From Methylotenera sp. (GTDB lineage Bacteria; Pseudomonadota; Gammaproteobacteria; Burkholderiales; Methylophilaceae), in contig JBKJUR010000017.1 of NCBI GenBank assembly GCA_046590165.1, positions 12,330-76,329 of the forward strand: a stretch of DNA of 64,000 nt, read 5' to 3'. The position numbers and the translations under genes were made by a program. Every line of letters begins with the position of its first letter. Position 1 is the stretch's first letter. The notes beneath the pieces were generated by a model. It saw only the letters and a list, made by a program, of their open reading frames with translations, did not search any database and was not told where the DNA came from. This document shows positions 2,877 through 20,553 of the stretch, one piece after another.

Positions 2877-2974
2877 ATGAGCCTAGCCGTACTATATAGC
2901 CGCGCTTTGAGCGGCATGGATGCACCAGAGGTGGTGGTAGAAGTGCATCTAGCCAATGGACTGCCAAGCTTTAC
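2877..2974 (+). pseudogene. comM: comM/yifB 5' fragment (first 32 codons plus 2 nt), severed by island insertion
   Basis: ATG at 2877. It translates MSLAVLYSRALSGMDAPEVVVEVHLANGLPSFT(I), the conserved ComM/YifB N-terminus. The frame then runs into island DNA (LCTINFKST) and stops at TGA 3006-3008. Confidence 0.9.
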
Positions 2975-3111
2975 TATATTGTGTACTATTAATTTTAAGT
3001 CCACATGATGGCTTGAAATATGCCAACGATTGTTGGTGTCTCATAAAGTGCAATTGTTAATCATGTGCACTAATGAAGGGCACAACTATGCCCGTGTGTT
3101 TTATCAAGCGC

Positions 3112-3549
3112 TTATTTTGCTATTTCTGATCTGATTGTTTTAGCTGTTGTACTAAGTGTGTTATCTAACTCACCATTTTCTACAGCTTTTTTCAATAGTT
3201 CTATCGCAGGAATTAAAGTTTCAAGATTATCAACTTCAATACCAGTTTTTCCTTTCAGCAACTCAATCCGTTTATTTGCATATCTCACTTCAAAAATAAC
3301 TTTTCCTTCTGGTGTTGTGTACCACCAAGGCTTTATTCGACGCTGCCATTCAACCTGTTCCCGTTGACCAGTTTCAAGTTTAAATGACTTAAAACTAAGA
3401 ACAAAATAATCAGAGCCTTCTACTTTTGCTTTAGCGCACTCAAATTGATGCTCAAGTTTATTCAATAAATTGCTACGTCTTTGTAAAGTTGGTGATAAGT
3501 TTGCAGGCCTATTTGCAGTAATTACTTTTAAACCATCTAAATAACCCAT
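3112..3549 (-). CDS. Hypothetical protein (145 aa), first gene inside the island's left end
   Basis: The ORF has no stops. It is basic and helical (MGYLDGLKVITANRPANLSPTLQRRSNLLNKLEHQ...). It resembles small proteins I recall from ICE/plasmid backbones, but I cannot name the family with confidence. Confidence 0.55.
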   Translation of the reverse strand: MGYLDGLKVITANRPANLSPTLQRRSNLLNKLEHQFECAKAKVEGSDYFVLSFKSFKLETGQREQVEWQRRIKPWWYTTPEGKVIFEVRYANKRIELLKGKTGIEVDNLETLIPAIELLKKAVENGELDNTLSTTAKTIRSEIAK

Positions 3550-3679: not shown

Positions 3680-3730
3680 TAACTAAGGATATTATATAAT
3701 ATAACCCATTGAAATATATAGGTTATTTGT

Positions 3731-4300
3731 ATGGCGCAAGCAAAATCATTAACTATTGCACAATTTGAGCAGGTACTAGAATCAATAGTCCCAACAAGAT
3801 ATTCAGCCAGAGATAGAGCGATGATTTTACTTAGTTTTTGGTCTGGGATGAGAGTGGGAGAAATTGCAGCTTTAAAAATGAGCGATGTTATTACAATTGA
3901 AGGAATCATCATTGATGAAATTCGATTAAAGCCTGAACAAACTAAAGGAAAAAATTACAGGATGGTTATGATTGGCTTAAGACTATGTAATGAATTAAAT
4001 ATTTACATATCTACGCTAGGTCACGATGAAGTGGATGCTCCGTTATTTGTTTCTCAAAAAACCAAGAAAAAATTTAATCCAAATGCATTGGGACAAAAAT
4101 TCAAGCGTATGTTTGAGAATGCTGGCATTTATGGCGCTACAAGCCATAGTGGGAGGCGCACTTTTATTACCCAATTAGCAAATAAAGGTATAAGTGTCAG
4201 AGTTTTACAGTCTTTGGCAGGGCATAAGAGTATCGTTACGACCCAACTATATATCGATGTTAATGATGAAATGAAAAGAACAGCTGTAAATATGATGTAA
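3731..4300 (+). CDS. Short tyrosine recombinase (catalytic domain only, 189 aa)
   Basis: The catalytic residues appear in the canonical order: R in WSGMRVGEIAAL, H-x-x-R in SHSGRRTF, and H...Y in AGHKSIVTTQLYIDV. There is no N-terminal SAM-like core-binding domain. Confidence 0.8.
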   Translation: MAQAKSLTIAQFEQVLESIVPTRYSARDRAMILLSFWSGMRVGEIAALKMSDVITIEGIIIDEIRLKPEQTKGKNYRMVMIGLRLCNELNIYISTLGHDEVDAPLFVSQKTKKKFNPNALGQKFKRMFENAGIYGATSHSGRRTFITQLANKGISVRVLQSLAGHKSIVTTQLYIDVNDEMKRTAVNMM

Positions 4301-4365: not shown

Positions 4366-4383
4366 TACCAATTTTAATTGGTA
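4366..4383. promoter_or_regulatory. 18-bp perfect palindrome TACCAATTTTAATTGGTA upstream of the SIR2 gene
   Basis: Read directly from the sequence. It sits 34 nt upstream of the SIR2 ATG (4417) and is a candidate operator or hairpin. Confidence 0.4.
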
Positions 4384-4416
4384 CTATATTTAATAATAAT
4401 AATTCAGGGGACCCTG

Positions 4417-5562
4417 ATGGTAGAACGGATAAATTTAGAAGAAATATACGATAAAAACATCAATATTCTTATTGGATCAGGAGCTTCATCTGGGTTGTTT
4501 CCAACCCTATCATTAAATATGAAGAATGATGATTCTTGGCACACTGTTGAAACAATAGCAACATTGATTGAACAATCAAAAAGTTCGGATAAGGTTAAGT
4601 TAAAAGCACTTCTGTTTATGCATTACTACAAAACTTGTATAAAACCCATATCCGAATTTGATGTAGATATACTGGATTCAGCACAGAGTTCAGTAATTGA
4701 AAATTATTCAATATTATTAAAAACAATTTTATACATTTTGGGTAAGCGACGCTCTTCCGACAGAAGGTGTAATTTATTCACAACCAACTATGATGGATGT
4801 CTTGCATTGACTGCAGATAAAATCTTAAAAGAGGGTAAAACTGAATTTATAATTAATGATGGAACACGTGGATTTAGGAAAAAATACTTACAAGCAAAAA
4901 ACTTTAATTCCTATGTCAGACAAACTGGAATATTTTCACTTCAACATAATGATTTGCAACAAATCAATCTAATTCACCTTCATGGTTCAGTATATTGGCA
5001 TAAGGATGGAGAAAATATTGTTGTTGACTACAGTAAGTCAATAAATTCTTTATTAGTATTTGATGAGGTTTACTTAGAAGCATTTTCTACCATGCTCGAA
5101 GATGAAAAGACCACATTTGAAATGCTTGAAATATACGCATCTTTGCTGGATGAAGATTTCGAAATAATTGCATCAAAGTTTTTAAATGAGTACAAACCTC
5201 TCCCAATCGTAAATCCTACAAAATGGAAGTTCCATGAAACGGTATTTGAAGAGCACTATTATCAAATGCTAAGAGCTATGAGTTACGAGCTCGAAAAACC
5301 AAATACTGTATTCATCACATTTGGGTTTTCATTTGCGGATGAACATATTTTAAATTTAGTAAAACGATCATTATCTAACCCAAGTCTACAGCTTTTTATT
5401 TGTTGCTTCGACTCAGCCAATGAAGAAAAATTGCGAGCTAAATTTATTGGTCATGAAAATGTTCAATTTATCGCAGCTAAAAGTGGAAATTTAAATTTCG
5501 AAAAATTTAATACTGAAATTTTCACCTTAAATCCTCCAACCCACCCAGTGAATGATGAGTAA
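4417..5562 (+). CDS. SIR2-like NADase domain protein (defense-type SIR2_2)
   Basis: Motifs GSGASSG (NAD-binding GxGxS), TTNYDGCL (TxNYD) and IHLHGSVYW (catalytic His). I prefer the ATG at 4417 (MVERINLEE...), which is preceded by CAGGGGA, over the track start at 4378. The stop overlaps the herA start (TAATG). Confidence 0.85.
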   Translation: MVERINLEEIYDKNINILIGSGASSGLFPTLSLNMKNDDSWHTVETIATLIEQSKSSDKVKLKALLFMHYYKTCIKPISEFDVDILDSAQSSVIENYSILLKTILYILGKRRSSDRRCNLFTTNYDGCLALTADKILKEGKTEFIINDGTRGFRKKYLQAKNFNSYVRQTGIFSLQHNDLQQINLIHLHGSVYWHKDGENIVVDYSKSINSLLVFDEVYLEAFSTMLEDEKTTFEMLEIYASLLDEDFEIIASKFLNEYKPLPIVNPTKWKFHETVFEEHYYQMLRAMSYELEKPNTVFITFGFSFADEHILNLVKRSLSNPSLQLFICCFDSANEEKLRAKFIGHENVQFIAAKSGNLNFEKFNTEIFTLNPPTHPVNDE

Positions 5563-7337
5563 TGACTATTAATGTAGGTGAAGTCATCGCGGTGAGAGGG
5601 GTTAGCATAACTCTAAAGATTTTCGATGAATCTAATAAAGATGTACTTTTTCATAGAGGGGAAAAATTCAAAGGTATTTCAATAAGGGAATACGTAACTA
5701 TTCAAAGAGGTTTCAAAAGCATTGTTTGTATAGTGCAAGGCGAATATTTAGACGAATCTAAATACGAAAAAGATGGTGTAGAGCGTATATCTTGGATACG
5801 TAAAGTTGAAGTAAAACCAATTGGATATTTTGAAAGTGATCTGTTTTTTGAAGGTATTAAATATCTTCCAATGATTAAGGATTTGGTTTTTTTAGCATCT
5901 GAAGAACAAATCAAAAGCATATTTAGTAAAGAAAATAGTAAAGATAAAGGTTTTGTAATTGGTGAGTTATTAAAAGAAGGACTTCCTATTTCTTTACCTT
6001 GGAAAAACCTATTCAATAGTCATATTGGTATATTTGGGAATACAGGTAGTGGAAAATCAAACACTCTTACCCACCTTTACACCACACTGTTTAAAGAAAA
6101 GAAAGAAAATATACAAGGTAAAAGCAAATTTGTAGTTTTAGATTTTAATGGGGAATATACAAAAAATCAGCTCATAGATGCAAATAATAAAAAAGTATAT
6201 AACTTAAGTACAAAAAATAATGATGGCGATAAATTTCCAGTTACACCAAATGAATTTTGGAATGCAGATACTTTATGCTTACTTTTTAAAGCCACCTCTA
6301 ATACTCAAACTCCCTTTATTAAAAGAGTTGTAAATGGTCAAAAGAAGTATGGTCAAAATGCTAATAGTTTGACAAATTATGTAAAAGCAACTTTTGAAAA
6401 AAATTTTAAAACGCAATCCCAGAAGAGAGAAACCATTGACTTACTAATTACTGTCGCAAAGGTAATCGGGAGTGAAGAGTTAATTAAGAAACTAAGTAGC
6501 CTGTCTTGGCATGGACAAGCTGGTAATTTTTATATCGTGAATGGACCACATTTTAATGGAGGCGATAGTCCTGCTTATGTAGCTATTTTTCAAGAAGAAG
6601 TTACCAACATAAATATTCAGAATTTAAACTTCTTCCAAGAGTTAATTTTAAGAATTAATTTACAGTTGGTGAATGATTTACTATCTGGATACGTTCAATT
6701 TGAGCATATCCAGCCACTTTTAAAACGCATTGAGGCATTAGCATTTAGCTTAGCTCAAATAATTGAAGTCAAAGATAATATTATTGAAAATAGGCTATTA
6801 ACCGTTATATCTTTAAGACAGTGCAATCAAGAGGTTAAAAAAGTTCTTCCCCTTTTAGTTGCCAAACATTTTTATGAAGGACACAAATCAACTGTAAATG
6901 CTCCTCCTGATAAAACTGTCCACTTAATCATCGATGAAGCTCATAATGTTTTATCACAACAATCATTAAGAGAAGAGGAGTCTTGGAAAGACTATCGTTT
7001 AGAACTTTTTGAGGAAATTATTAAGGAAGGAAGGAAGTTCGGATTTTATCTTACTTTGTCGAGTCAAAGGCCAGCAGACATTTCACCTACAATCATGTCG
7101 CAAGTTCATAATTTTTTTATACATAGATTAGTCAATGACCGAGATCTTTTTTTACTAGATAATACGATTAGCACTCTGGATAGTTTATCAAAAAGCATGA
7201 TTCCAAATCTATCTAAAGGGAGTTGTATACTTACTGGAACTGCATTTGATTTGCCTTTGCTAATTCAGGTAAATTTACTGATTAAGGAGCAACAGCCTGA
7301 TAGTGAAGATGTTGATCTAGAAGTTTTATGGACATAA
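5562..7337 (+). CDS. HerA-like (DUF87) hexameric ATPase/helicase
   Basis: 591 aa. Walker A is GIFGNTGSGKSNTL and Walker B is VHLIIDEAHNVL. It is followed by KEGRKFGFYLTLSSQRP, typical of the HerA/FtsK-like clade. It is translationally coupled to the SIR2 gene. Confidence 0.85.
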   Translation: MTINVGEVIAVRGVSITLKIFDESNKDVLFHRGEKFKGISIREYVTIQRGFKSIVCIVQGEYLDESKYEKDGVERISWIRKVEVKPIGYFESDLFFEGIKYLPMIKDLVFLASEEQIKSIFSKENSKDKGFVIGELLKEGLPISLPWKNLFNSHIGIFGNTGSGKSNTLTHLYTTLFKEKKENIQGKSKFVVLDFNGEYTKNQLIDANNKKVYNLSTKNNDGDKFPVTPNEFWNADTLCLLFKATSNTQTPFIKRVVNGQKKYGQNANSLTNYVKATFEKNFKTQSQKRETIDLLITVAKVIGSEELIKKLSSLSWHGQAGNFYIVNGPHFNGGDSPAYVAIFQEEVTNINIQNLNFFQELILRINLQLVNDLLSGYVQFEHIQPLLKRIEALAFSLAQIIEVKDNIIENRLLTVISLRQCNQEVKKVLPLLVAKHFYEGHKSTVNAPPDKTVHLIIDEAHNVLSQQSLREEESWKDYRLELFEEIIKEGRKFGFYLTLSSQRPADISPTIMSQVHNFFIHRLVNDRDLFLLDNTISTLDSLSKSMIPNLSKGSCILTGTAFDLPLLIQVNLLIKEQQPDSEDVDLEVLWT

Positions 7338-7567: not shown

Positions 7568-10500
7568 ATGTACAAAAAATTGAAATTTTCCTTAAATATT
7601 GATTTCTCCAACAAACAACCAAAACTACATTTATCTGAATATCAAAATAAATTTATAAACGTCGATGGCACTCTGCTTGAGTTGGCTGAAGCAATTAATG
7701 ATGGAGAGGCTTTTAGTTATCAGTTCCACAATGAAGAGCGCAAAACGGCAAATTTCTTATGCTCGGATTTTCTAGTCGTAGATATCGATGAAGGATGGAT
7801 GATATCAGATGTGCTTAACCATCCATTGGTTAGTAAACACTGTAGTCTGCTTTACACTACTCCCCGACATACTTCAGAAAACCATCGATTTCGATTAGTG
7901 TTTGTACTGCCAAAAACTATTTTCGACTCAAGAGAATTAAAGGCTGCAACTAAATCTTTAGTAAGGCGATTAGGCGGTGATATGTCTGCGACCGATGCAG
8001 CAAGGATGTTTTACGGCTCCATAAATTCATATCAAGAAATTTCAAATAAAGAGCTGTCAGAAGAGCTTTTAGCTGAACTGATAGCCGATGGTTTAGTGAA
8101 TCCTGTCAGTGATTCAAGTATGCATAGACCAGCTCTTAGCATGTCTAATTTGACTATTAAACCAGATTTTGAGATTACCACCGCTGTAAGTGGTGTTCTA
8201 AAGTTTATGGATTTCAAGAAAAAAACTAATGTTTACTGTCCTTTTCATCCCGACAAAAATGCGAGTGCCTTTGTCGGCTTAAACGCTAAATCCATCCCTT
8301 ATCTAGTTTGTTCAACTTGCCAATTTACACGCTGGTTAGAAGGAAATCATAAGGAAGATTTTGATTTCCATAGCTTCGAAAATACTGTAAGTGAATATTT
8401 ACGCACTCCACCTACCAAAATAAATGAATTTGAAACTCCTCTTACACGATTACTTTACGATTCAGTACCGCTAGAAAATAAAGGTATTCACTTTTCAAAT
8501 GATCGTTATTTACAAATCAATAAAATTGAAAATGGTATTACTTTTATCAAGAGTCCTAAAGGTACTGGTAAGACAAATTTTCTGAAAGACTATTTAAAGA
8601 AGATTATCTTTAAAAATTCATCTGTCAATTTAGAGAGTTTTGTAGAAGATATTAATACAGGTAAAGATGCACCAATTTACACTAATAAGAAAGTATTATT
8701 AATCGGACACCGGCAGGCTTTAATAAGTGAAATGTGCAAACGACTAGGTTTAGTTTGTTATCTGGATATCAAAAATACCAAAGACTTAGCTAAAGGTGAT
8801 AATCCAAACTACGGAGTTTGTTTAGACAGTTTGTGCGTGGCACTTGGCGACCAATCTAAAACTAAATGGGATCTCATCATTATTGATGAGTCAGAACAAG
8901 TTTTATCACATTTTTTGTCTGAAACATTAGGTGATAAACGCATAGAGATATTCAATCAATTAAACATACTCATCGGTAATGCTAAAAGGGTTGTTGCATT
9001 AGATGCTGATTTAGGATGGATCACATTCAATACCATTACCAGAATGGCGAAATCTCAATCTGATGCCGTCATACCAATTCAAATACATATAAATAAATGG
9101 GTTGATGGCTCGAAGCCTATATTCATTTATCAAACTTCATCTCAATTGATCGATCATCTAAAACAATCCATTATTGATGGCAAACAAATTTTTGTCTCTT
9201 CTAATTCAAAAAATAAAATTCAATCATTAGAAAAAGCGATTGAAGAGTTGGCAAATAAACTAGGTATTCAAATTCCAATGATCTCCATTACTTCGGAGAA
9301 CTCTAAATCGACTATTAACCAACATTTCATTACAAATATTAAGTCAGAGATAATTAAATATAAAGTCATTTTATCTTCACCGTCATTAGGAACCGGTATT
9401 GATATTACTTTTGATAAAAATTCTGAATTTATAGATTGTGTATATGGGTTGTATGAAAACAGAATCAATACCCATTTAGAAATTGATCAGCAGCTAAGAA
9501 GGGTTAGACATCCAAAAGAAGTGCATGTTTGGGTGTCACCAAGTTTGTATAACTTTGAATCTGAATTTGAAGTTGTTAAAGATGAATACCTTAATAATAA
9601 CTTTCTTCTAAATTTGTATTACCAACAAATCCTTACAAATAACCCCCTTAAGATTTCAAATGAATTTGTAGGTAATTTTTTAATGATGGCTGCTCTAATA
9701 ACAGTTTATCAAAGATCTTCAAAAAATAAGCTTAAGCGCAATTTTCTGGAATACAAACAAGCTGATGGCTGGCAGATTTTAGACGTATTGCAAGATGAAA
9801 TAGCAATGAATGTTGGTAAAGAGTTTTTCAAAAGAGGCGCTAACCTATTGAGCGAAGAAATGATTGCAGATATTTTAGCCTCAGCACCATTAAGAAGAGA
9901 GGAGTATGACGATATTAGTGAGCGAATGGATGCCAACGATAAAGAAGTTTCGAGAAGTGAATATTTTTCATTACAAAGAACCAAGCTGGAATTATTTTAT
10001 CGCCAATCTATCAGCCGTCAGCTTATTAAAGATGATAATAAAACAAAACTTCGTCGGGGCATTTTGGCATACGAAAAGATCACCAATTCTGAAAGGATAA
10101 AATTTATTATTCAGGATAAGACAGCAAACAAAATGAATGTTCATGAACTAGGGCTTCATGAAAAAATCCTTCCTGATAAAAATACTGCTGCTATGTTGCT
10201 GTATCAATTATTTGGCAAAACGCCTATTTTCAGTAATGGCATATTCCTTGAATCAATCGAATTTAAGAAAGATGATTTACAGGATTTCATTAAGCTAGTG
10301 ATTAAAAGAAAGTCTTTTATCGAAAATCATTTGGGTTTGAATGTTCGATCAGATATCGTCATGAAACCAGTTCAATTTTTGGGACAGTTACTAAAAGAGG
10401 TTGGTTTAGGTCATTGGAAAGCAAAATCACATATCGTAAAAGGTATGAAAATTTACATTTATATATTAGATCGAGATAAGCTGAATTCAGTTAAAAAAAC

Positions 10501-10594
10501 TGTTCTTTTAAGAGAGAAAATAGAATCTCAATGGAGTTTTTTCTATGATTTACATCATTTTAAAGATGAAGCAATCACCCATTATATTGACTAA
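7568..10594 (+). CDS. Primase-polymerase (AEP-like) / CHC2 zinc finger / P-loop helicase fusion protein (1008 aa)
   Basis: The N-terminus has FLVVDIDEG (DxD) and TTPRHTSENHRFRLVFVLP, an AEP/PriCT-like pattern. YCPFHPDKNASAF...CSTC is a CHC2 primase-type zinc finger. FIKSPKGTGKTNFL is Walker A and WDLIIIDESEQVLSHF is Walker B. The remainder is a long helical C-terminal region. Confidence 0.7.
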   Translation: MYKKLKFSLNIDFSNKQPKLHLSEYQNKFINVDGTLLELAEAINDGEAFSYQFHNEERKTANFLCSDFLVVDIDEGWMISDVLNHPLVSKHCSLLYTTPRHTSENHRFRLVFVLPKTIFDSRELKAATKSLVRRLGGDMSATDAARMFYGSINSYQEISNKELSEELLAELIADGLVNPVSDSSMHRPALSMSNLTIKPDFEITTAVSGVLKFMDFKKKTNVYCPFHPDKNASAFVGLNAKSIPYLVCSTCQFTRWLEGNHKEDFDFHSFENTVSEYLRTPPTKINEFETPLTRLLYDSVPLENKGIHFSNDRYLQINKIENGITFIKSPKGTGKTNFLKDYLKKIIFKNSSVNLESFVEDINTGKDAPIYTNKKVLLIGHRQALISEMCKRLGLVCYLDIKNTKDLAKGDNPNYGVCLDSLCVALGDQSKTKWDLIIIDESEQVLSHFLSETLGDKRIEIFNQLNILIGNAKRVVALDADLGWITFNTITRMAKSQSDAVIPIQIHINKWVDGSKPIFIYQTSSQLIDHLKQSIIDGKQIFVSSNSKNKIQSLEKAIEELANKLGIQIPMISITSENSKSTINQHFITNIKSEIIKYKVILSSPSLGTGIDITFDKNSEFIDCVYGLYENRINTHLEIDQQLRRVRHPKEVHVWVSPSLYNFESEFEVVKDEYLNNNFLLNLYYQQILTNNPLKISNEFVGNFLMMAALITVYQRSSKNKLKRNFLEYKQADGWQILDVLQDEIAMNVGKEFFKRGANLLSEEMIADILASAPLRREEYDDISERMDANDKEVSRSEYFSLQRTKLELFYRQSISRQLIKDDNKTKLRRGILAYEKITNSERIKFIIQDKTANKMNVHELGLHEKILPDKNTAAMLLYQLFGKTPIFSNGIFLESIEFKKDDLQDFIKLVIKRKSFIENHLGLNVRSDIVMKPVQFLGQLLKEVGLGHWKAKSHIVKGMKIYIYILDRDKLNSVKKTVLLREKIESQWSFFYDLHHFKDEAITHYID

Positions 10595-10617
10595 ATTAAT
10601 ACATTTGTCAGGATAAC

Positions 10618-10710
10618 TGTATATTCCGGTAAAAAGAGCCACTCATTCCACTTCAAACCAGCCAGTGATTCCAGTCCAAAACCGCCAACCATAACTACAC
10701 AAAGCTGCCA
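10618..10710 (+). repeat. Left end of nested element: terminal IR plus three direct subterminal repeats
   Basis: The three repeats are tATTCCGGTAAAAAGAGCC, cATTCCACTTCAAACCAGCC and gATTCCAGTCCAAAACCGCC. The ATTCC motifs start at 10623, 10645 and 10668, giving spacings of 22 and 23 bp. Confidence 0.7.
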
Positions 10711-10973
10711 TTTAAATTTATTACTACTGAAATGCTCGAATGAGTAAAAGGTCCACAAAGCGGGCATTAGTGCATCTGGAAATTGCTAATGAGGCTAATT
10801 GACATATTTTGAAAACCTCGATTGACAGTGATTTCAATATGTTCGCTAACAGACATAATATATGAATGCTGAGTGGTATCCTAGTTATGCGAATTTGGAG
10901 TAGAGTGTACGAAGTAATTCGATTATTTTTTAGAAAAAGATTGATGACACTCAACTACAATGTACCTAGCAAC

Positions 10974-11702
10974 ATGCATAATCATTTGCTTGCAGCCTTC
11001 CGCTTCATGAATTCAATCGCATTTCATCAGGCGTTGAGTTAGTTAAAATGCCGCTGGGTGAGGTACTTTGTGAGTCTAATGAAAAGCTCAATCATGTTTA
11101 CTTTCCGACTACCTCTATTATCTCATTGGTCTATGTATTAGAAAATGGCGCGACAGCGGAAATTGCCAGTATAGGTAATGAAGGTATTTTGGGTGTCACT
11201 TTATTGATGGGTGGTAACACAACAACGAGTTTTGCAGTGGTGCAATCTGCAGTGTATGGGTATCGCCTAAAAGCGTCTTTATTATTGGCAGAATTTAATC
11301 GCAGAGGGCCATTGATGCATCTTCTACTGCGCTATACGCAAGCGCTGATCTCGCAAATGACACAAACAGCCGTTTGTAACCGATATCACACCATAGAACA
11401 GCAACTATGCCGCAGATTATTATTAAGCCTAGATCGCAGCCCTCTTGCTCGCTCACCATGACGCAAGAACTCATTGCCAATATGCTAGGTGTACGCCGCG
11501 AAGGCGTGACAGAGGGGCAGGAAAACTTCAACACCTAGGCCTGATTCAATATAAAAGAGGTCGCATTGATGTGATTGATCGAGTTGGGTTAGAAAAATCG
11601 GTTTGTGAGTGTTATCAGGTGTTCAAAAAAGAGTTAGATAGACTAGTCTCAGATATTCCACAAGGCGACCCGCAACATGTGCTTGGTGAGTCGATTACTT
11701 AA
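10974..11702 (+). pseudogene. Crp/Fnr-family transcriptional regulator, multiply frameshifted
   Basis: MHNHLLAA (10974-) shifts frame to LPLHEFNRISSGVELVKMPLGEVLCESNEKLNHVYFP..., which is ORF 11048-11461. A further piece, MTQELIANMLGVRREGVTE, lies in a third frame. The HTH tail AGKLQHLGLIQYKRGRIDVIDR is in ORF 11445-11702. There are at least three frame breaks. Confidence 0.8.
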
Positions 11703-11728
11703 TCTATCCTTATTTTTACAGGTTTAAT

Positions 11729-12283
11729 ATGCAGCTCTTTAAATTAGAATACAGCAAGTACACCTATTACGCAGACTTTGTATTTTACGCAATAGCTCTG
11801 TTTGTTATAGGGTATTTATTGGCGATGACGACTAGCCCAGCGCAATACCCAGCCATCGTGATTTATGCAACCATCGGTTTAATTGGCTGGACCTTAATAG
11901 AATACGTCATACATCGTTTTGTGTTGCATGGTTTACCGCCATTTAAAGCTTGGCATGCAGAGCATCATCGTCGGCCTACTGCTTTTATCTTTGCCCCTAC
12001 GTTCGTGAGTGCTAGCTTAATTACTTTGTTTATATTTATTCCGGCTTGGCTAATGATTGGTATATGGCCTGCTACTGCACTCACTTTTGGAGTGGTAGTC
12101 GGCTACCTTTTTTATACATTATTACACCATGCTACGCATCATTGGCATGCTAATAATACTTGGTTTAAAGAACGTAAGCGCTGGCACGCTTTGCACCACC
12201 TTTCACACAACCAAATGTTGCAACAGCCCAGCCATTTTGGCGTGACCAATGGTTTTTGGGATAAGGTATTTTCGAGTAATTAA
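11729..12283 (+). CDS. Fatty acid hydroxylase / sterol desaturase superfamily membrane protein
   Basis: Histidine boxes HRFVLH, HAEHHRRP, HHATHHWH and HALHH sit between hydrophobic segments. Confidence 0.75.
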   Translation: MQLFKLEYSKYTYYADFVFYAIALFVIGYLLAMTTSPAQYPAIVIYATIGLIGWTLIEYVIHRFVLHGLPPFKAWHAEHHRRPTAFIFAPTFVSASLITLFIFIPAWLMIGIWPATALTFGVVVGYLFYTLLHHATHHWHANNTWFKERKRWHALHHLSHNQMLQQPSHFGVTNGFWDKVFSSN

Positions 12284-12434
12284 AGTGCTAATGGGTTGCC
12301 TTTAACATGGAAGCAGTTGTACTCATCTGAAACAGCAAGTATGAATAGCTTTGTTTATAGTAATAGTTTAACGAAATAAACAAACACCAGATCATTAACA
12401 ACGTGAATGTAATAAACTCAGAAGGAGTTACTCT

Positions 12435-12620
12435 ATGAAGCAAGTCAAAGTAGGTGATACCGAGTATCAAGCGCACTTAAAGGCTCTGGAAGAACATAAA
12501 GCTTTGGTCGATTTAATGGGTGAGGGCCATGAGAATGTTGACTTGGAAGAGTTGAAACGCTCATTACATGAATTAACACAGACAATCGAGGAGTATTTTA
12601 AAGTGATTGGCATTCCTTAA
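12435..12620 (+). CDS. Small hypothetical protein (61 aa)
   Basis: A strong SD (GAAGGAG) lies 7 nt upstream of the ATG. The product is acidic and helical. A weak hairpin plus T-run follows at 12615-12635. Confidence 0.5.
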   Translation: MKQVKVGDTEYQAHLKALEEHKALVDLMGEGHENVDLEELKRSLHELTQTIEEYFKVIGIP

Positions 12621-12739
12621 TCTTAAGGTTTTTTTATTTAAGGACAAGGTCAAACGAACTTCTGTTGATATTTAGTCATTTCAATATAACTATTAAAGAG
12701 TTTTTATAGTTACATTTTCTATGATAATTTCATGAATAT

Positions 12740-13321
12740 TTACAGATACTTAGATTTCCACAATAATGTAATGATTGCAATTTGCTGTGCAATATTTTCT
12801 GGCGATAACACATAATCAATGCAGCCACTCGCTATAGCACTCTCTGGCATTGCTGGCTCAATCGCAGTATCAAGTTTTTGTGCAATTGTAATGCCGCCAA
12901 TATCTTTAATGCCACATAATGCGGCTGAGCCATCCCCATCGTAGCCAGAAACAATCACGGCAATCAACTTACCATCCCAATAATGAGTGATAGAACTCAG
13001 AAAAACTGTGATGACATCAGGCCAGCCTCTAGGCTTAGATATTGGCTCCAATTGAAACTCACCATTGTGCACATGTAAATCTCGATTGGCTGGAATAATA
13101 AACACTTGATTGGGTTCGATTGCCAAATGATCCGTAATCAGTTTAACGGGCATGTTGGTATATTTAGGAAGAATTTCGTGCAGATGCGTTGGCATTTTTG
13201 TAATGTGATTCACGATGACAATCGCTACGCCTAAATCATCAGGCAGATTATCTAATAAACGAATATAGGCATCTAATCCACCAGCTGAACCGCCAACGCA
13301 GACAATAGGAAAACATTTCAC
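12740..13321 (-). CDS. Stand-alone CheB-type methylesterase/deamidase domain protein (193 aa)
   Basis: The CheB catalytic-domain pattern is present: VCVGGSAGGLDA (Ser), VIVNHITK (His) and VSGYDGDGSAA (Asp). There is no receiver domain. Confidence 0.75.
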   Translation of the reverse strand: MKCFPIVCVGGSAGGLDAYIRLLDNLPDDLGVAIVIVNHITKMPTHLHEILPKYTNMPVKLITDHLAIEPNQVFIIPANRDLHVHNGEFQLEPISKPRGWPDVITVFLSSITHYWDGKLIAVIVSGYDGDGSAALCGIKDIGGITIAQKLDTAIEPAMPESAIASGCIDYVLSPENIAQQIAIITLLWKSKYL

Positions 13322-13385
13322 AGAAACTTATCCAATGGAATTATATGCTGTTTGCCACTACTAAAAAAATTAAATAAAATAATCA

Positions 13386-14033
13386 TTACATCATGGGCAA
13401 TGAAGTCGTCCATTCTTTCATCGCATCTTCGCCGGAACGGTCTATTTTAACTTTATTGTTATCAATAGAAGTTACCCAACTAATTGGGATGTAATGGTGA
13501 TGCCCCATATCGTCTTTATTTAATTTAATAAAGTCGAAACCTTCCATATGGTCAACCGTAGCGAATTGACCATCTTGGTTACATACTACTGCCATCTCAG
13601 GTTTAATTTCAGATAAACTTATACTATGCTTAACACCATAGTAGGTGTGTATTGTATTGGCCCACGCCGGATCTGCCATGTTGGGCCAATGATCTTTATC
13701 AAACCCTGGCGCATCTTCAAGACGCTCCTTCTCAACATTAAGCACAAAGTGCTTATTCTGAACATTAAGCTTTAACGCATGCCATGGCACAGCAAAAAGC
13801 TTTTCACCCATGCCAAGAAAGCCACCAAATGAAACTACTGCATATTCAACTTTACCGCTAGACATGTTGAGCATAATTTCTTTTATATCGCCAAGATGTT
13901 CACCTTTATGATTATAGACATCATTACCATTGAGCGTATCTGCTCCCATTAAACCTGGGCCGGGGCCATCGATGGTATGACTTTTATACATGCCATAGCT
14001 ATCACGTTCTTCGTAATTCATATTAATCTCCAA
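13386..14033 (-). CDS. PRC-barrel domain plus DUF2171-like domain protein
   Basis: GEHLGDIKEIMLNMSSGKVEYAVVSFGGFLGMGEKLFAVPWHAL is a PRC-barrel signature. The C-terminal ...VDHMEGFDFIKLNKDDMGHHHYIPISWV resembles DUF2171. Confidence 0.7.
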   Translation of the reverse strand: MEINMNYEERDSYGMYKSHTIDGPGPGLMGADTLNGNDVYNHKGEHLGDIKEIMLNMSSGKVEYAVVSFGGFLGMGEKLFAVPWHALKLNVQNKHFVLNVEKERLEDAPGFDKDHWPNMADPAWANTIHTYYGVKHSISLSEIKPEMAVVCNQDGQFATVDHMEGFDFIKLNKDDMGHHHYIPISWVTSIDNNKVKIDRSGEDAMKEWTTSLPMM

Positions 14034-14395
14034 TTAACTAATTTCATTAAGTTACCTTATAGCGCTGTAATTAATTAGTAACGCAAAAGATAATTAGATT
14101 AGGCTTAATAGATCCCAAATTCAGTTCGGCAACGAACATAGCAAATGAAATATTTGTCTAGTATTGAATAATATCTTTATAATAAATCACTAGATAATGA
14201 CAATCTGCATTTAAGAATAAATCTGTAAACTTCCCATTTAATTCTTTGGATTTTTATTAGGGCTTTATAAAAGCTAATTTTATAACAACTTAGATCTGTG
14301 CATTTAATAAACTCAATCCAGTGTTTTTGTGCGTTATCGTACATACAAACAATGGGCTTATCTAAATACTACTAATAATTTAAGTAGGAATATTT

Positions 14396-15466
14396 ATGCC
14401 AACTATACGTAAAGGGCAAGCACCAGTCGTATTAGGTCGTGATGAATTTCATCTTGAATTTCATAAGTCATTTCTTGACCCTAGTTTTAAGACTGTTTCT
14501 GATCAACTTTATAAGGTTGAAGAAATAGCTTGGATAAATTATAAAGAAGGTCATAAAGCTCCTTCTACAGAAAAGGCAGGCGCTGCATTTTCTGATCCTA
14601 CTTATGAGCTTTCAGTTGAATGGAAAGCTACTAGAGACCGTCTTATATTGGCAGAAGAAAAGCAGAAAGACCGTGCAACTAAATCACGTGTATTGCTTAT
14701 TTGTGGGTCTGCTCGGAATGACGGCAGCTGTCCGGGTGAGGTTTCAAAAACTTGGCGCTTAACCATGTTAGCTAAAGAAGTATTGGTTGCTGAAGGAATG
14801 GAAGTTGATTTACTTGATTTAAGTTTATTGATTTCAGACTACGATAAACATATTCATCCATGTAAAGGTTGTGTTTCAACGGCAATGCCTTTATGTCATT
14901 GGCCTTGTAGTTGTTACCCCAATCATGGGCAACGTCAAACTAATGATTGGATGGCGGATATCTATGAAAAATGGGTAGCTGCTCACGGCATTATTATTTT
15001 CACTCCTGTTTATTGGTATCAAACACCTAGTGTATTGAAGCTAATGATCGATCGCTTAGTTTGTGCTGATGGCGGAAACCCTGACCCAACTACTACTCTT
15101 GGTAAGAATGCTGAAAAAGCGAAACAAATCGAGCTGGCAGGTTGGTCTTATCCAAAACATCTTGCAGGGCGGGCCTATGGTGTGGTAGTGCATGGGGATG
15201 TCGCTGGTATCGAAGGGGTAAGGCGTGGATTATCTGACTGGTTAGACTGGATGGGGCTTATAGATGCTGGTGCAAAGTCTAAACTTGACCGTTTTATTGG
15301 TTATTACGAATCTTATGCCAAAAGTCATGAAGCACTTGACCGTGATCATGCCGTACAAGAGGAAGTTCGTAACGTTGCTAAATCAGTAGGTGTTGCGGTA
15401 GATAAGATACGAAAAGGTAACTTAGAGCCATCAGACTTTGCATTGCAACAGCCTCGGCCAAAGTAA
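14396..15466 (+). CDS. Flavodoxin-like (NADPH-dependent FMN reductase fold) protein with Cys-rich Fe-S-type insert
   Basis: VLLICGSARNDGSCPGE is typical of flavodoxin-like reductases. The cysteine cluster is HPCKGCVSTAMPLCHWPCSCYP. Confidence 0.6.
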   Translation: MPTIRKGQAPVVLGRDEFHLEFHKSFLDPSFKTVSDQLYKVEEIAWINYKEGHKAPSTEKAGAAFSDPTYELSVEWKATRDRLILAEEKQKDRATKSRVLLICGSARNDGSCPGEVSKTWRLTMLAKEVLVAEGMEVDLLDLSLLISDYDKHIHPCKGCVSTAMPLCHWPCSCYPNHGQRQTNDWMADIYEKWVAAHGIIIFTPVYWYQTPSVLKLMIDRLVCADGGNPDPTTTLGKNAEKAKQIELAGWSYPKHLAGRAYGVVVHGDVAGIEGVRRGLSDWLDWMGLIDAGAKSKLDRFIGYYESYAKSHEALDRDHAVQEEVRNVAKSVGVAVDKIRKGNLEPSDFALQQPRPK

Positions 15467-15579
15467 AACTTGCAACACAATAAAAAAACGCTTATTTCGA
15501 TGCTTGCACTATTATTTACCAAATTTAAGGCATAAGCTTTTGGCTTAACTAGACAAAAATAATATGCTTATTAACGGAA

Positions 15580-15807
15580 ATGGTGATTACTATGAATAAT
15601 GATGTTTTCAATATGGATATTCGTAAGTACTTAAAAATGGTAGGAATTAATTCACAGCACGAGATTGAGCAAGCGGTAGCAAAGGCTATTGCTAAGGGTC
15701 TGATCAAGGGTGACGAAACATTGTCTGCGAAAATGACGCTTACTATCGGCCAAGTGAATCTGAATGTCAGTGTTGATGGGATGATTGGTTTGGAGTTAGC
15801 AGCTTAA
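15580..15807 (+). CDS. Small hypothetical protein (75 aa; true start may be 15592)
   Basis: An ORF between two redox genes on the same strand. I recognise no motif. Confidence 0.4.
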   Translation: MVITMNNDVFNMDIRKYLKMVGINSQHEIEQAVAKAIAKGLIKGDETLSAKMTLTIGQVNLNVSVDGMIGLELAA

Positions 15808-16000
15808 TTCTGGATAGTCTTTTGTTTACCTGAGTATTGAAGCAGGTTCTACTTAATTAGTTTCTATTTAAGAATTATTTTATTCTCCAAATAATTACAA
15901 CTCTAAGCGGACTCTTTTTAAATACAGGTGTTAGAGAGTTGCTGTAAAAGATGTATATGGTAGCTAAGATTGTTAATCCTGTTTTCTTAAGGAGTTAGCC

Positions 16001-17206
16001 ATGATAAAGCAAGTTTACGATTACGTGATTGTGGGCGGCGGGTTGGCGGGCTCATCGGCGATAGAGGGTATCCGGGAACTAGATGCGGTGGGAAATATAC
16101 TCATGATTTGCGCAGAAAAGCATCTGCCCTATGACCGTCCACCACTTTCCAAGCAATTGTGGTCTGGCAAACAAAAGGTCGAAGACATCTTCCTGCAAGA
16201 TAAGACATTTTATGACCAACATAAAGCAACACTATTACTGGGCGTGAAAGTAGTAAGGCTTGACCCCAGCGAAAAGACAATAACTACCACCAACGGCGAG
16301 AACTATGGCTTCGTCAAGCTGTTGCTAGCCACAGGTAGCATGGCGCGGCATTTATCTATTCCTGGCAGCAATCTCGAAGGTATCTGCTATTTCCGCAGCA
16401 TAGACGACTATCTACATACTCGAAGCGTAGCTACGGCAGGAAAATCTGCCGTGGTGATCGGTGGGGGATTTATCGGTTCGGAGCTTACTGCTGCGCTCAG
16501 TATCAACAAATTGAATGTCACCATGATTTTCCCAGATACAACTCTTTGCAGTCATGTATTTCCGGACTATTTGGGGCAGGCCATGCTTCGAAAATTCCAA
16601 GAGCGGGGGATTAGTGTTCTGATATCCGACAAGCCTGACTCCTTCAGCAGGAACGGCGATAAATTCATTACACACACAGAGAATGGTAAAACGATAGAAT
16701 CGGACCTGGTCATCGTTGGCGTAGGCGTTACCCCAGAAATGGAACTGGCCAAAAGTGGCGGTTTGCAAGTGGGTAATGGCATTGTAGTGAACGAGTTTCT
16801 TGAAACTTCAAACCCAGCTATTTTTGCTGCAGGAGATAATACTTTCTTCCCCTACTATGCACTGGGACAGCAGATGCGTTTGGAGCACTGGGATAACTCA
16901 CTTAACCAGGGAAAATTGGCAGGGCGCAACATGGCTGGCGCTCATGAACCATTTACCTATCAGCCGTATTTTTTCTCGGATCTTTTCGAGTTTGGCTATG
17001 AAGCTACCGGCGAGGTCGACTCGCGCCTCGAGACTTTCGCTGATTGGCAAAAGGAAAATGATACCGGCGTCATCTACTATCTGCGCGATGGGAAGGTCAG
17101 GGGCGTGATGATGTGTAATGTATGGGATAAGATTGAGGTGGCACGCACACTAATCAAGAAGGCAGAAACTGTAAAGCCAGAAATGCTGCGTGGCCTGATA
17201 CGTTAA
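16001..17206 (+). CDS. FAD-dependent pyridine nucleotide-disulfide oxidoreductase (AIF/ferredoxin-reductase-like)
   Basis: Dinucleotide-binding motifs YVIVGGGLAGSSA and AVVIGGGFIGSEL, plus AAGD near the C-terminal third. Confidence 0.85.
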   Translation: MIKQVYDYVIVGGGLAGSSAIEGIRELDAVGNILMICAEKHLPYDRPPLSKQLWSGKQKVEDIFLQDKTFYDQHKATLLLGVKVVRLDPSEKTITTTNGENYGFVKLLLATGSMARHLSIPGSNLEGICYFRSIDDYLHTRSVATAGKSAVVIGGGFIGSELTAALSINKLNVTMIFPDTTLCSHVFPDYLGQAMLRKFQERGISVLISDKPDSFSRNGDKFITHTENGKTIESDLVIVGVGVTPEMELAKSGGLQVGNGIVVNEFLETSNPAIFAAGDNTFFPYYALGQQMRLEHWDNSLNQGKLAGRNMAGAHEPFTYQPYFFSDLFEFGYEATGEVDSRLETFADWQKENDTGVIYYLRDGKVRGVMMCNVWDKIEVARTLIKKAETVKPEMLRGLIR

Positions 17207-17371
17207 GGCCTAAATTTTTACTTTGAGCAGCTAATAGTTAAATCAAAAGATTTGTGCGTATGCTCAAATCCGTTTTTTGATCGGGAGGGCTAGCACATAA
17301 TTGCGATGACGCGTCACAGCATTTAGTCCAAAAGAAAAGCATTCAAATCCGTGTCGCCTAGGAGCACATCT

Positions 17372-17944
17372 TTAACCAAAGTACGCACCAAGGTTGCTAA
17401 GCGCATCTGCAATTTCTTTCGGTGACAGCACATAGTCAACATAGCCTAAAGCCTGAGCATTACGAGACATATCCTCTACTTCGGCCGACATGTCCTGGGC
17501 AAAGGTTGTTCCTCCCTTTGTCTTGATTGACCTGCATCCCTCACTACCATCGCTATGGTACCCAGAGAGGATAATGCCGATGGCATGTTCCCCCATCGCC
17601 TCTGCTAAGGAACTAAAGAACAAATCTATTTGTACGTTTCTCCTAGAACGCGGGGAGACGACCTTGAAGTTACCTCTTTCTATCTGAAGATCTGCATTCC
17701 CTGGTATGACGTAGATATGATTTGCCTGGATCGGCATCCCTGTCGAAGCCAGCAATGCAGGCATTGTCGTGTAACGCGACAGAATTTTAGCTAACTGACT
17801 ATTGGCTTCAGGATGAATGTGAGAAATAACGACAAAGGCCATGACTGTATTGGATGGCAGAGACTCAAAGAGCGCCTTATAGGCATTAAGAGCGCCAGCC
17901 GAGCCACCAATGCCGACAATGTAGTTCGGGAGGAATTTAGTCAT
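17372..17944 (-). CDS. Stand-alone CheB-type methylesterase/deamidase domain protein (190 aa)
   Basis: IVGIGGSAGALNA (Ser), VVISHIHP (His) and LSGYHSDGSEG (Asp). It starts 35 nt downstream of the kaiC stop on the same strand. Confidence 0.75.
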   Translation of the reverse strand: MTKFLPNYIVGIGGSAGALNAYKALFESLPSNTVMAFVVISHIHPEANSQLAKILSRYTTMPALLASTGMPIQANHIYVIPGNADLQIERGNFKVVSPRSRRNVQIDLFFSSLAEAMGEHAIGIILSGYHSDGSEGCRSIKTKGGTTFAQDMSAEVEDMSRNAQALGYVDYVLSPKEIADALSNLGAYFG

Positions 17945-17979
17945 ACACTAAGCCAGCTTTTAACATACACTTTTTTTGA

Positions 17980-19494
17980 TTAATTTTGACGCACAGTAAT
18001 ACTTTTTCCAACCTTTTGTTTCTGATGGGGTCCAGCAGTCGCGTTAGAATCCATGGTGACCAACTTCAATCCATCATCACTCAATACAAATTTGTGGACA
18101 TCGCTGGAGTGGCCCATGCCGCGAGACTTCACGATGTAAATGCCACGAATGCGTCTTTTCCCCTCATTTTCTTCTAATTCCCGAACGACGATCCAGGTGT
18201 CAATCAAAGACGAGACGCCGATTTCGCCGCTCGTGTCATTTTGTGCGCTCGAAGAAACAAGGCTGGTAAAAAAGCTGGTGATAGCCCTCGATTTTAGGGC
18301 ATCGATCATGCGCGTCAGCATCGATTGAATTTCAAGTTCATTGCCCTGACCAATAAGACTAGTCAAGGGATCGATGATGACCGCTTTGGGTTTGAAATCC
18401 GCAATCATCTTGTATAAATCGAGTAAATGCATTTCCAGGCCAAAAAAGGAAGGCCGGGTAGACACAATCTTCAAAAGCCCTTTTTTAATTAAAGGATCTA
18501 AATCAAATCCAATAGAACGCATGTTTTGTATGAGTTGCCCTGACGATTCCTCATATGACAAGAAAAGACACCGTTCTCCACGTTTACACGATTGCACAGC
18601 GAATGCCGCCGCGAGGCTTGTTTTACCGGTGCCTGCAGTACCTGAAGCGAGAACTGTGCTGCCTCTTGTATAGCCGCCTCCCTGAAACAATTTGTCCAAC
18701 GAGGCAATACCCGTCGGAACCCTCTCTGAGGTGCCAGGATGATCGAGTCCTGCTGAAGTGATGGGAATGACTGACAGCCCGTCTCGATCTATGACGAAGG
18801 GATATTCATTTGTGCCGTGATTTGAACCGCGATACTTGATGATACGCATTCTACGGGTGGAAATTTGTTCTCTAACTCTGTTGTCCACGAGAATGATGCA
18901 ATCAGAAATGTACTCCTCCAGGCCATGACGGGTATAAGAGCCTTGTCTGAGCTCGCCGGTAATGAGTGCCGTCACTTGTTTATCCTTAAGCCACCGGAAC
19001 AGTCTTTTTATCTCCAAGCGAAGAATGCCGGCATCGGTGACGCCTGCAAAGAGTGATTCAATGGAATCCAAAACAACGCGTTTGGCGCCAATGCTATCAA
19101 TGGCCAATTCCAAACGTATGAACAGTCCTTCAAGATTAAATTCGCCTTGCGATTGAATATCTCCACGCTCCAACAGGACATAGTCGAGCACAATCTTTTT
19201 TTGCGTAACAAGTTCTTTCAGATCAAAATTGAGAGAAATCACGTCATTATAAAGTTCATCTTCTGTCTCTTCGAAAGACAAGAAGACACCTGGCTCGTTG
19301 TACTTAGTCGCTCCGTGGATTAAAAAATCAATCCCCAGGAGGGTTTTTCCAGTGCCGGTACTGCCACACAATAAAGTGATTCTATTTCTTGGAATTCCGC
19401 CTTCTGTAATTTCGTCAAAGCCCTGGATGCCGGTGAGGCATTTCTGGAAATTATTATCATCAGAGGCAATTTTTGTCTTAGGAGTTTTAGGCAT
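17980..19494 (-). CDS. kaiC: KaiC-family double RecA-like ATPase
   Basis: 504 aa with two tandem domains. Each has a Walker A (LLCGSTGTGKT; LASGTAGTGKT) followed by the EE motif (SFEETEDEL; LSYEESSGQL). Confidence 0.85.
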   Translation of the reverse strand: MPKTPKTKIASDDNNFQKCLTGIQGFDEITEGGIPRNRITLLCGSTGTGKTLLGIDFLIHGATKYNEPGVFLSFEETEDELYNDVISLNFDLKELVTQKKIVLDYVLLERGDIQSQGEFNLEGLFIRLELAIDSIGAKRVVLDSIESLFAGVTDAGILRLEIKRLFRWLKDKQVTALITGELRQGSYTRHGLEEYISDCIILVDNRVREQISTRRMRIIKYRGSNHGTNEYPFVIDRDGLSVIPITSAGLDHPGTSERVPTGIASLDKLFQGGGYTRGSTVLASGTAGTGKTSLAAAFAVQSCKRGERCLFLSYEESSGQLIQNMRSIGFDLDPLIKKGLLKIVSTRPSFFGLEMHLLDLYKMIADFKPKAVIIDPLTSLIGQGNELEIQSMLTRMIDALKSRAITSFFTSLVSSSAQNDTSGEIGVSSLIDTWIVVRELEENEGKRRIRGIYIVKSRGMGHSSDVHKFVLSDDGLKLVTMDSNATAGPHQKQKVGKSITVRQN

Positions 19495-19899
19495 ACACTA
19501 AATCCTTATTTAAGTTGGTCATTCAGCGCTATTCCGAATCAGCCTGAAATCGACAACGTCATCCGAGAAAAGAAATAAGGTGGGCATATTGTCGTTCACG
19601 GTAATGGAATTCTGTGCAGGTCACGTCGACAGTTGCAATCCTTGGCTATGTTGAGTTTGGCACGCTGCGTAGCGCCCAGTCGGTTCGTCAGCACACATAT
19701 AGTAGCGAGTTGTGAACAGTCTATTTTTGCAAAAGTACAATTACTTCAAAATTTTGTCTATATCACTATGTAGGCTAGCGTACAGATGGCAGGAAAGTAT
19801 TGGCATAGTCTTAATATTGCTCAGTTAAAGGCATAACCAATGGTTATGCTGTGACGACCGAAAAAACCTCAAATTAAATATTTAGAAAGACAATTAATA

Positions 19900-20376: not shown

Positions 20377-20553
20377 GAGCCTAATTATTATTAATTGGAC
20401 CAGTGAATCGATATCATGATATTCAAATTGTTTGATTAGCTATTATATCGATCAATAGTATCAAATATTGACTGAACTCTGGGAAGACCAGTGTTCATTA
20501 GACATTTACCTTGGAGAGCACCCATTCTCCATGTGCTTTGAAGGAGATATTAA

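Follow-up and report, generated by a model that had tools for sequence, protein, structure and literature searches.

We analyzed a stretch of 64,000 nucleotides of Methylotenera sp. (contig JBKJUR010000017.1 of assembly GCA_046590165.1; hereafter, the window), in which a gene of 1008 codons, here called rep, is located directly downstream of a two-gene SIR2-HerA defence system. Both lie within a genomic island of ~26.4 kb that splits comM, and rep is probably the replication gene of this island. An earlier note on the same DNA, made from the letters alone, had proposed a self-replication function and had left room for a role in the defence locus. The gene and its modules are listed below with the basis of each assignment (coordinates are those of the window; aa, amino acids; ORF, open reading frame).

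7568..10594, plus strand: rep, a 1008-aa primase-helicase with a CyRepA1-family body and a head made of an archaeo-eukaryotic primase (AEP) and a zinc finger (ORF translation, NF042913, PHROG, homologues).
7568..8101, plus strand: AEP (PrimPol-like) primase domain, residues 1-178 (AlphaFold model, Foldseek, conserved residues).
8165..8347, plus strand: CHC2 zinc finger of the DnaG type, residues ~200-260 (invariant ligands, weak profile matches).
8495..9547, plus strand: superfamily 2 (SF2) helicase core resembling UL9 and other origin-binding proteins, residues ~310-660 (Walker motifs, PF02399 in homologues, profile).
9548..10591, plus strand: C-terminal helical domain ending in a helix-hairpin-helix (winged-helix-like) unit, a putative origin-recognition domain (model, BFVD, NF042913).

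The ORF and the five motifs quoted in the earlier note are confirmed, since all of them are found in the translation of rep: the acidic motif VVDIDEG, which contains D72 and D74; HRFRLVFVLP (residues 106-115); CPFH...CSTC, with the zinc ligands C224, H227, C248 and C251; the Walker A motif SPKGTGKTN (residues 329-337, with G332-T336 invariant); and the Walker B motif IIIDESEQ (residues 437-444, with D440-E441 invariant). When 53 full-length homologues (36-63% identity) are aligned, the quoted residues are invariant or nearly so, and therefore the motifs are not chance strings. The adjacency to SIR2-HerA, which PADLOC recovered, is equally real: rep is co-directional with the upstream SIR2 and HerA genes, and the gap between HerA and rep measures 230 bp.

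The N-terminal head (residues 1-320) was modelled with AlphaFold (predicted local distance difference test, pLDDT, 80; predicted template modelling score, pTM, 0.70). Its best Foldseek match was the AEP domain of the cyanophage S-2L PrimPol (6zp9_A, E 1.3e-6, probability 1.0), over all 185 target residues; human PrimPol (E 4.6e-3), the PrimPol of African swine fever virus and a herpesvirus helicase-primase came next. The motifs typical of AEPs (DxD, sxH and hD) are present, with D72, H101, D138 and D143 invariant and D74 and H106 conserved in at least 90% of the 53 homologues, and DNA-primase families of PHROG match residues 43-162. The AEP catalytic fold in residues 1-178 is confirmed in this way, as the earlier note had called it, and primer synthesis is predicted. 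The PriCT-like module that the note also suspected was not detected in Rep.

Downstream of the AEP domain, the zinc ligands C224, H227, C248 and C251 (C-x2-H ... C-x2-C) are invariant and P225 is nearly so, in a CPFHxD...PS.F context. Profile comparison with the zinc-binding domain of Aquifex DnaG (2au3) gave weak matches (E 0.17 and 0.056), and PF01807 (zf-CHC2) is among the precomputed annotations of several homologues, with no Pfam match on the Rep of the window itself. Taken together, the invariant ligands and the DnaG profile matches support the assignment of a putative CHC2 finger.

The helicase call of the earlier note also stood, now specified as an SF2 core of the UL9 type with invariant Walker motifs. 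PF02399 (Herpes_ori_bp) is precomputed in most homologues, the full-length Rep profile matches structures of herpesvirus origin-binding proteins (E 0.001-0.003), and phrog_3712, annotated as ‘replication origin binding’, matches Rep with E 8.5e-15. It should be noted that with the single Rep sequence of the window PF02399 stayed below significance, no other Pfam match appeared, and the PDB search was likewise empty.

The C-terminal part had been described as a helical region with no recognizable motif. This holds in that no Pfam match or significant PDB match was obtained, winged-helix proteins being the only recurring weak matches of the model of residues 640-1008 (pLDDT 79) in the PDB. It does not hold for viral structures: the BFVD search returned 16 matches with E<=1e-3 and probability 1.0 to giant-virus ‘replication origin-binding protein’ and SF2 helicases (best E 4.8e-7), among them the origin-binding helicases of Bodo saltans virus, Marseillevirus and Samba virus (E 5e-7 to 3e-3). 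The C-terminal ~350 residues of Rep are the C-terminal domain of the origin-binding-helicase family, for which DNA binding is predicted. Rep is thus built of four modules, namely an AEP/PrimPol-fold primase, a CHC2 zinc finger, a UL9-like SF2 helicase and a C-terminal domain common to viral origin-binding helicases.

The body of Rep falls into a named family. The NCBIfam model NF042913 (plasmid replication protein, CyRepA1 family), whose curated cutoff is 200 bits and which covers the body and leaves out the head, matches residues 322-947 with 330.6 bits (E 2.3e-98) over model positions 2-590 of 595. A PHROG family annotated as ‘replication’ matches the middle region (E 2.5e-53), and a homologue 63% identical to Rep is already named CyRepA1 family by NCBI (Prokaryotic Genome Annotation Pipeline, PGAP). 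The self-replication function proposed in the earlier note is upheld by this match above the cutoff and by the place of rep among the backbone genes of an island with a serine recombinase, described below. The characterised members of the family, Slr7037 and CyRepA2, bear an N-terminal DUF3854 domain. As regards its body, Rep is therefore a CyRepA1-family protein, although the head typical of the characterised members is missing and the gene is borne by an island and not by a plasmid. The AEP-headed variant is experimentally uncharacterised.

Proteins of this type are common. A database search returned at least 532 homologues of Rep, most of them of about 1000 aa. With a profile of the AEP and zinc-finger head, 343 representative clusters (50% identity) were recovered at E<=1e-30 and 1818 at E<=1e-10; the top matches are for the most part 950-1100 aa long. 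The full-length AEP-headed homologues are found mostly on chromosomal contigs, and identical Rep proteins with the same gene order recur in several independent metagenome samples. Among the 222 matching plasmid records of PLSDB, only two cover at least 80% of Rep; one of the two is a Bradyrhizobium plasmid of 318 kb, equipped with a replicon of its own, in which the rep copy is split into two coding sequences among insertion sequence (IS) elements. The possibility raised beforehand that the homologues are mainly plasmid Rep genes does not describe the AEP-headed clade. In the viral database IMG/VR, the full architecture was absent and the search returned only 15 distant relatives, all without the AEP head. 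Apparently, not every copy is intact, as several related loci have split or truncated rep ORFs (e.g. L047, L050 and L057-L062).

The limits of the island were located through the split comM. The genes at both ends are given below; L004 is the locus of the closest relative, whose Rep is 63% identical.

2877..2976, plus strand: 5' fragment of comM (MSLAVLYSRALSGMDAPEVVVEVHLANGLPSFT...), encoding the N-terminus of ComM and ending at the left attachment site (attL).
3112..3549, minus strand: DUF6641 gene, a backbone gene of the left end (Pfam DUF6641; homologues in 7 related loci; 94% identical to the L004 copy).
3731..4300, plus strand: tyrosine recombinase of 189 aa, catalytic domain only, a backbone gene (Pfam Phage_integrase, E 2.8e-28; 86% identical to the L004 copy).
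27552..29354, minus strand: large serine recombinase of 600 aa at the right end, next to the right attachment site, attR (Pfam Resolvase, Recombinase and Zn_ribbon_recom; 74% identical to the L004 copy).
29397..30856, plus strand: rest of comM, starting at attR (…VGLPEAEVKESKDRV…).

The in silico removal of positions ~2977-29396 restores a comM ORF of 520 aa without internal stops. The identity of ComM is given by Pfam Mg_chelatase and ChlI matches on the L004 orthologue, which is 79% identical. The termini of the island are imperfect inverted repeats, TTGTGTACTATTA and TAATAGTATACAA, around a common ACTAT core, and the same comM site is occupied in L004 and in L082, another relative (Rep 58% identical). 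The element is a site-specific genomic island with a large serine recombinase at one end, whose target gene is restored by its deletion. A generic search for direct or inverted repeats as attachment sites between 2.3 and 11.2 kb gave chance-level matches only. Integration linked to a tRNA gene was considered and rejected, as there are no tRNA genes in the window. Our literature search on comM serine-recombinase islands returned nothing specific, the matches being mostly to unrelated words such as “common”. The earlier note had also compared the element with satellites and phage-inducible chromosomal islands; this comparison was not supported, since no terminase, capsid or packaging families were found among the island genes and the Rep architecture is absent from IMG/VR. 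Mating-pore genes were not found in the island either.

Regarding the end genes, the 189-aa tyrosine recombinase retains its complete catalytic set (R41, H149-x-x-R152, H175 and Y184) and has no N-terminal core-binding domain. It forms with the DUF6641 gene, on the opposite strand, a divergent pair kept at the left end of the island (3112-4300). Short tyrosine recombinases (~190-210 aa) adjoin rep in many related loci, with multimer resolution or cargo exchange as candidate roles. At the right end, the listed ORF 29357-30856 is the 3' part of comM with an artificial extension that reaches into the island.

The interval between the tyrosine recombinase and rep (hereafter, the Int-Rep slot) holds the defence genes in the window:

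4378..7337, plus strand: SIR2-HerA two-gene defence system, island cargo in the Int-Rep slot (PADLOC).
4378-5562, plus strand: SIR2 (PADLOC, E 4.6e-51).
5562-7337, plus strand: HerA (PADLOC, E 9e-183).

The comparison of gene neighbourhoods, set beforehand as a check, was made on 76 loci from reference genomes, the majority of which are alpha- or betaproteobacterial and lie on large contigs of the chromosome. In 52 of these loci rep has a tyrosine or large serine recombinase at a distance of up to 10 kb, and in 49 of up to 5 kb, often as the immediate neighbour; tyrosine recombinases account for 45/76, serine recombinases of the same cluster as that of the window for 17/76, and both types occur together in 10/76. 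None of the 76 has a homologue of SIR2 or HerA up to 10 kb away from rep, and none was found near Rep in the closer metagenomic relatives L082-L085. Homologues of Rep travel, then, with recombinases and not with SIR2-HerA.

The closest relatives show what occupies the slot in other islands. L004 shares with the window the DUF6641 gene, the 189-aa tyrosine recombinase, Rep, a 151-aa ORF described below and the serine recombinase. Its slot (L004:4306-8825) carries three genes, for a 1060-aa protein combining SIR2, an nSTAND5 NTPase, TPR and a cold-shock domain, for an S24 peptidase and for an SNase nuclease; the 1060-aa SIR2-STAND protein has PADLOC matches to PDC-S25 and to ThsA-like SIR2. The slot of L082 (L082:7750-9380) contains an SNase fragment and two ORFs, of 397 and 146 aa, without assigned function. 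Neither ORF has a significant Pfam or PADLOC match, and by their position both are candidate uncharacterised defence genes. Since the contents of the slot differ between close relatives, SIR2-HerA can be regarded as exchangeable cargo. In L083-L085 (Rep 50% identical), a helix-turn-helix gene precedes rep, which is followed by the 151-aa ORF and, further on, by a serine recombinase. The island of these three loci carries copper/metal-resistance cargo (multicopper oxidase, OEP, cation efflux, MerR and P-type ATPase genes) and is inserted next to moaC, not in comM; the same arrangement occurs in many metagenome samples. A general defence hotspot beside Rep was considered and rejected, PADLOC being empty for the Rep-adjacent genes of L082, L023, L031, L069 and L027; a defence-rich Int-Rep neighbourhood is claimed for the window and L004 only.

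Downstream of rep, a second small gene and the spacer that precedes it complete the putative replication region:

10609..10618, plus strand: left copy of the 10-bp direct repeat CAGGATAACT, in the spacer between rep and the HUH gene (the exact 10-mer occurs only twice in the window).
10619..23180, no strand assigned: transposon-like insertion of 12,562 bp between rep and the HUH gene, with metabolic and signalling cargo (10-bp flanking repeat, inner inverted repeats).
23181..23318, plus strand: right copy of CAGGATAACT and AT-rich spacer with an inverted repeat, a candidate origin or nick site (alignment to the L004 spacer).
23319..23774, plus strand: mini HUH (Rep/relaxase-type) nuclease of 151 aa, a candidate nickase (TL, HxH and YxxK motifs).

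The HUH motifs TL, HxH (H78, H80) and YxxK (Y132, K135) do not vary among 5 homologues, with identities as low as 22%. The Pfam family PF23343 (REP_ORF2-G2P) matches weakly, with 25.8 bits in the window (cutoff 27.8) and 28.2 bits in L004. The gene follows rep directly in L004 and L083-L085, and among the loci searched it was present in only 4 distinct related island types. In the window the two genes are separated by the 12,562-bp block, the inner ends of which are imperfect inverted repeats (35/43 matches), and joining both flanks of this block reproduces the rep-HUH spacer of L004. The spacers of L004 and L083 have in common the motif TTAGTTATCYT, which in the window appears as a variant interrupted by GG (TTAGTTAGGTTATCCT). 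We infer that this spacer is the best candidate for an origin or nick site. A 23-bp tandem repeat after rep (10632-10687) was considered as a set of iterons and discarded, because it corresponds to the left end of the 12.6-kb insertion.

As for the insertion itself, no transposase was found in it. Its cargo includes two CheB genes, KaiC, a PRC-domain gene, FMN reductase, Pyr_redox_2, Band_7, a fatty-acid hydroxylase and DUF305. The KaiC-like double-ATPase gene (504 aa) adjoins a gene with a CheB methylesterase domain (17372-19494), an unusual signalling pair on a mobile element. A Crp-like gene with a cyclic nucleotide (cNMP)-binding domain at 11048-11702 appears split into overlapping ORFs of 137 and 85 aa, probably a frameshifted regulator, and the same split is present in independent metagenome contigs.

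Taking the above into account, we consider rep likely to code for the protein that replicates the ~26.4-kb integrative comM island, acting as primase, helicase and probably origin binder, and not to be a part of SIR2-HerA. Replication by Rep is inferred from its domains and context and could proceed as follows. The serine recombinase would excise the island as a circle. Rep would then recognise the origin, probably the AT-rich inverted-repeat spacer between rep and the HUH gene, via its C-terminal winged-helix-like domain; its SF2 motor would unwind the DNA, its AEP and zinc-finger head would prime synthesis, and a host polymerase would extend the primers. The 151-aa HUH nuclease may nick the origin, leading to a rolling-circle or transfer-coupled mode. 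Replication would prevent the loss of the excised circle before reintegration or transfer, and SIR2-HerA would be carried along as cargo.

Several observations weigh against this interpretation. The spacer proposed as origin is interrupted in the window by the 12.6-kb insertion, with possible harm to the replicon. A search for the junction predicted after excision (attP) gave no exact match among the metagenome contigs of the Joint Genome Institute (JGI), a weak negative given that the strain is possibly absent there, and neither small circular contigs with rep nor rep-bearing contigs with terminal overlaps were found. The sole experimental evidence for the CyRepA1 family concerns a cyanobacterial protein 22% identical to Rep, with another primase head and from a true plasmid. 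In the Thermus island ICETh2, a PrimPol with an adjacent helicase was reported to be dispensable for replication of the element (PMC7693054). Finally, co-transcription of rep with SIR2-HerA is possible, because a simple scan of the plus strand detected no terminator-like site in the 230-bp gap.

One alternative is that Rep and the mini HUH protein constitute a mobilisation module, in which the HUH relaxase would act at an origin of transfer (oriT) in the spacer while Rep, like the plasmid primases Sog and TraC, would unwind the transferred strand and prime the complementary strand in the recipient; the island would then be an integrative mobilisable element using the mating pore of a helper. 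The invariant HUH motifs and the direct adjacency of the gene to rep in relatives are compatible with such a module, as are the inverted repeat of the spacer, the DnaG/TraC-like zinc finger of Rep, and the fact that neither mating-pore nor packaging genes were found in the island, so that transfer would need a helper. However, the HUH gene is confined, among the loci searched, to 4 related island types and does not, therefore, accompany Rep in general; its sole Pfam similarity, a weak one, is to the rolling-circle family REP_ORF2-G2P and not to relaxases, and the body of Rep has a homologue on which plasmid replication depends. We regard mobilisation as an unlikely primary role, which nevertheless can coexist with replication, the two not being mutually exclusive.

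It is similarly improbable that rep is a relic, that is, that the island is no longer mobile or replicative and the gene is functionless or has been co-opted by the host. The insertion disrupting the spacer and the missing attP junction in the JGI metagenomes fit this idea, and so do the split or truncated ORFs of the related loci mentioned above and the Bradyrhizobium plasmid copy annotated as two coding sequences among IS elements. Against it, the ORF of 1008 codons is intact with all conserved catalytic residues present, the serine recombinase and both att half-sites are intact, the identical protein and arrangement appear in several independent metagenome samples, and the turnover of cargo between close relatives indicates recent activity.

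A DNA-interference or repair role of Rep, independent of SIR2-HerA, is very improbable. It would follow the proposal made for the ICETh2 PrimPol-helicase pair, in which the PrimPol was reported to be linked to defence against environmental DNA besides being unneeded for replication of the element (PMC7693054), and rep does lie in a defence-rich neighbourhood in the window and in L004. Yet PADLOC has no match to Rep and finds no known defence genes beside it in five other loci, the conserved partners across loci are recombinases, and the homologues of the body of Rep include a bona fide plasmid Rep and viral origin-binding helicases. Least credible of all is the idea, left open in the earlier note, that Rep is a third (sensor or effector) component of SIR2-HerA, since apart from its co-directional position 230 bp downstream with no terminator detected in the gap, the observations contradict it: the system is absent around Rep in all 76 loci and in L082-L085, other genes fill the slot in islands with 58-63% identical Rep, and PADLOC models SIR2 and HerA as complete alone, with no model for Rep.

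For annotation purposes, the large multidomain gene beside SIR2-HerA would then be the replication gene of the island and not a new defence component, which removes a false lead. The body known from a “cyanobacterial plasmid” family, CyRepA1, occurs in addition in a very large clade of proteins with AEP heads, which is found mainly in chromosomal islands of Alpha- and Betaproteobacteria. Furthermore, the frame of the island (split comM, integrase, rep and serine recombinase) allows variable cargo to be read off, including candidate defence genes in relatives, so that the island family and its variable Int-Rep slot are more useful leads than Rep itself. Insertion into comM may also lower the natural transformation of the host. 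More speculatively, and rather doubtfully at present, the comM islands may represent, in Proteobacteria, a so far uncharacterised class of integrative elements able to replicate, defined by a large serine recombinase, a minimal tyrosine recombinase with DUF6641 and a Rep-HUH replicon, with the Int-Rep interval as a dedicated anti-phage exchange slot. If this were true, the defence genes could also gain in dosage when the excised island replicates.

In its general design, the island recalls the staphylococcal cassette chromosome (SCC) elements, which are inserted in rlmH and encode Ccr large serine recombinases and the Cch helicase. As in SCC, a cassette with variable cargo and its own gene of the helicase/primase type is inserted site-specifically in a conserved gene by a large serine recombinase. 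The differences lie in the host phylum, in the target (rlmH there, comM here) and in the helicase, which is MCM-like in SCC and a UL9-like SF2 enzyme in our island.

A remote likeness links Rep to the origin-binding proteins of herpesviruses (UL9) and giant viruses, in which an SF2 helicase is likewise followed by a C-terminal domain. These viral proteins lack the fused AEP and zinc-finger head of Rep, and in herpesviruses the primase, UL52, is a protein separate from the origin-binding protein.

The earlier note did not recognise the domain combination of Rep from any characterised protein. The combination is in fact not new in silico, as homologues bear the PGAP name CyRepA1 and an AEP fused to a UL9-like helicase has been described. 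The description, in the bioinformatic survey of Kazlauskas et al. 2018 (PMC5862659), concerns the ‘All3500 family’ of AEPs, which are fused to a UL9-like (PF02399-related) SF2 helicase and found on integrated mobile elements. According to the survey, the C-terminal helicase is remotely related to SF2, with herpesvirus UL9 as the closest relative, and the elements are bounded by att sites of tyrosine or serine recombinases (PMC5862659). Since the survey is bioinformatic, it contains no biochemically characterised member of the family. Rep is compared here with the All3500 family by its architecture as described; its CHC2 finger, and the association with comM and with a large serine recombinase, do not appear in the passages of the survey consulted on this family.

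The closest experimentally studied counterpart is Slr7037, the founding member of the CyRepA1 family, which is required for autonomous replication of the pSYSA plasmid in Synechocystis PCC 6803 (PMC9978351). It is a protein of 958 aa with a DUF3854 (Toprim-like) domain and a DEXDc helicase (PMC10079941). Both Slr7037 and Rep are thus proteins of about 1000 aa with a primase head and a helicase, and the CyRepA1 family has been tied to the replication of an extrachromosomal element (PMC9978351). BLASTP aligns residues 284-982 of Rep to 287-938 of Slr7037 with 22% identity (E 8e-22). The head of Slr7037 is DUF3854, as we checked (E 3.4e-50), whereas that of Rep consists of an AEP fold and a CHC2 finger without DUF3854, and the two heads do not align; in addition, slr7037 is a gene of the plasmid pSYSA, which also has an antisense-RNA control locus (ssr7036/asRNA1), while rep of the window belongs to a chromosomal island with recombinases. 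Since the alignment is limited to residues 284-982 and leaves the heads unaligned, the two proteins share, as judged from sequence comparison, a helicase and C-terminal chassis and carry non-homologous primase heads. Rep and Slr7037 would therefore represent a further case in which non-homologous primase heads, Toprim-like in one and AEP in the other, have been swapped on a single helicase chassis.

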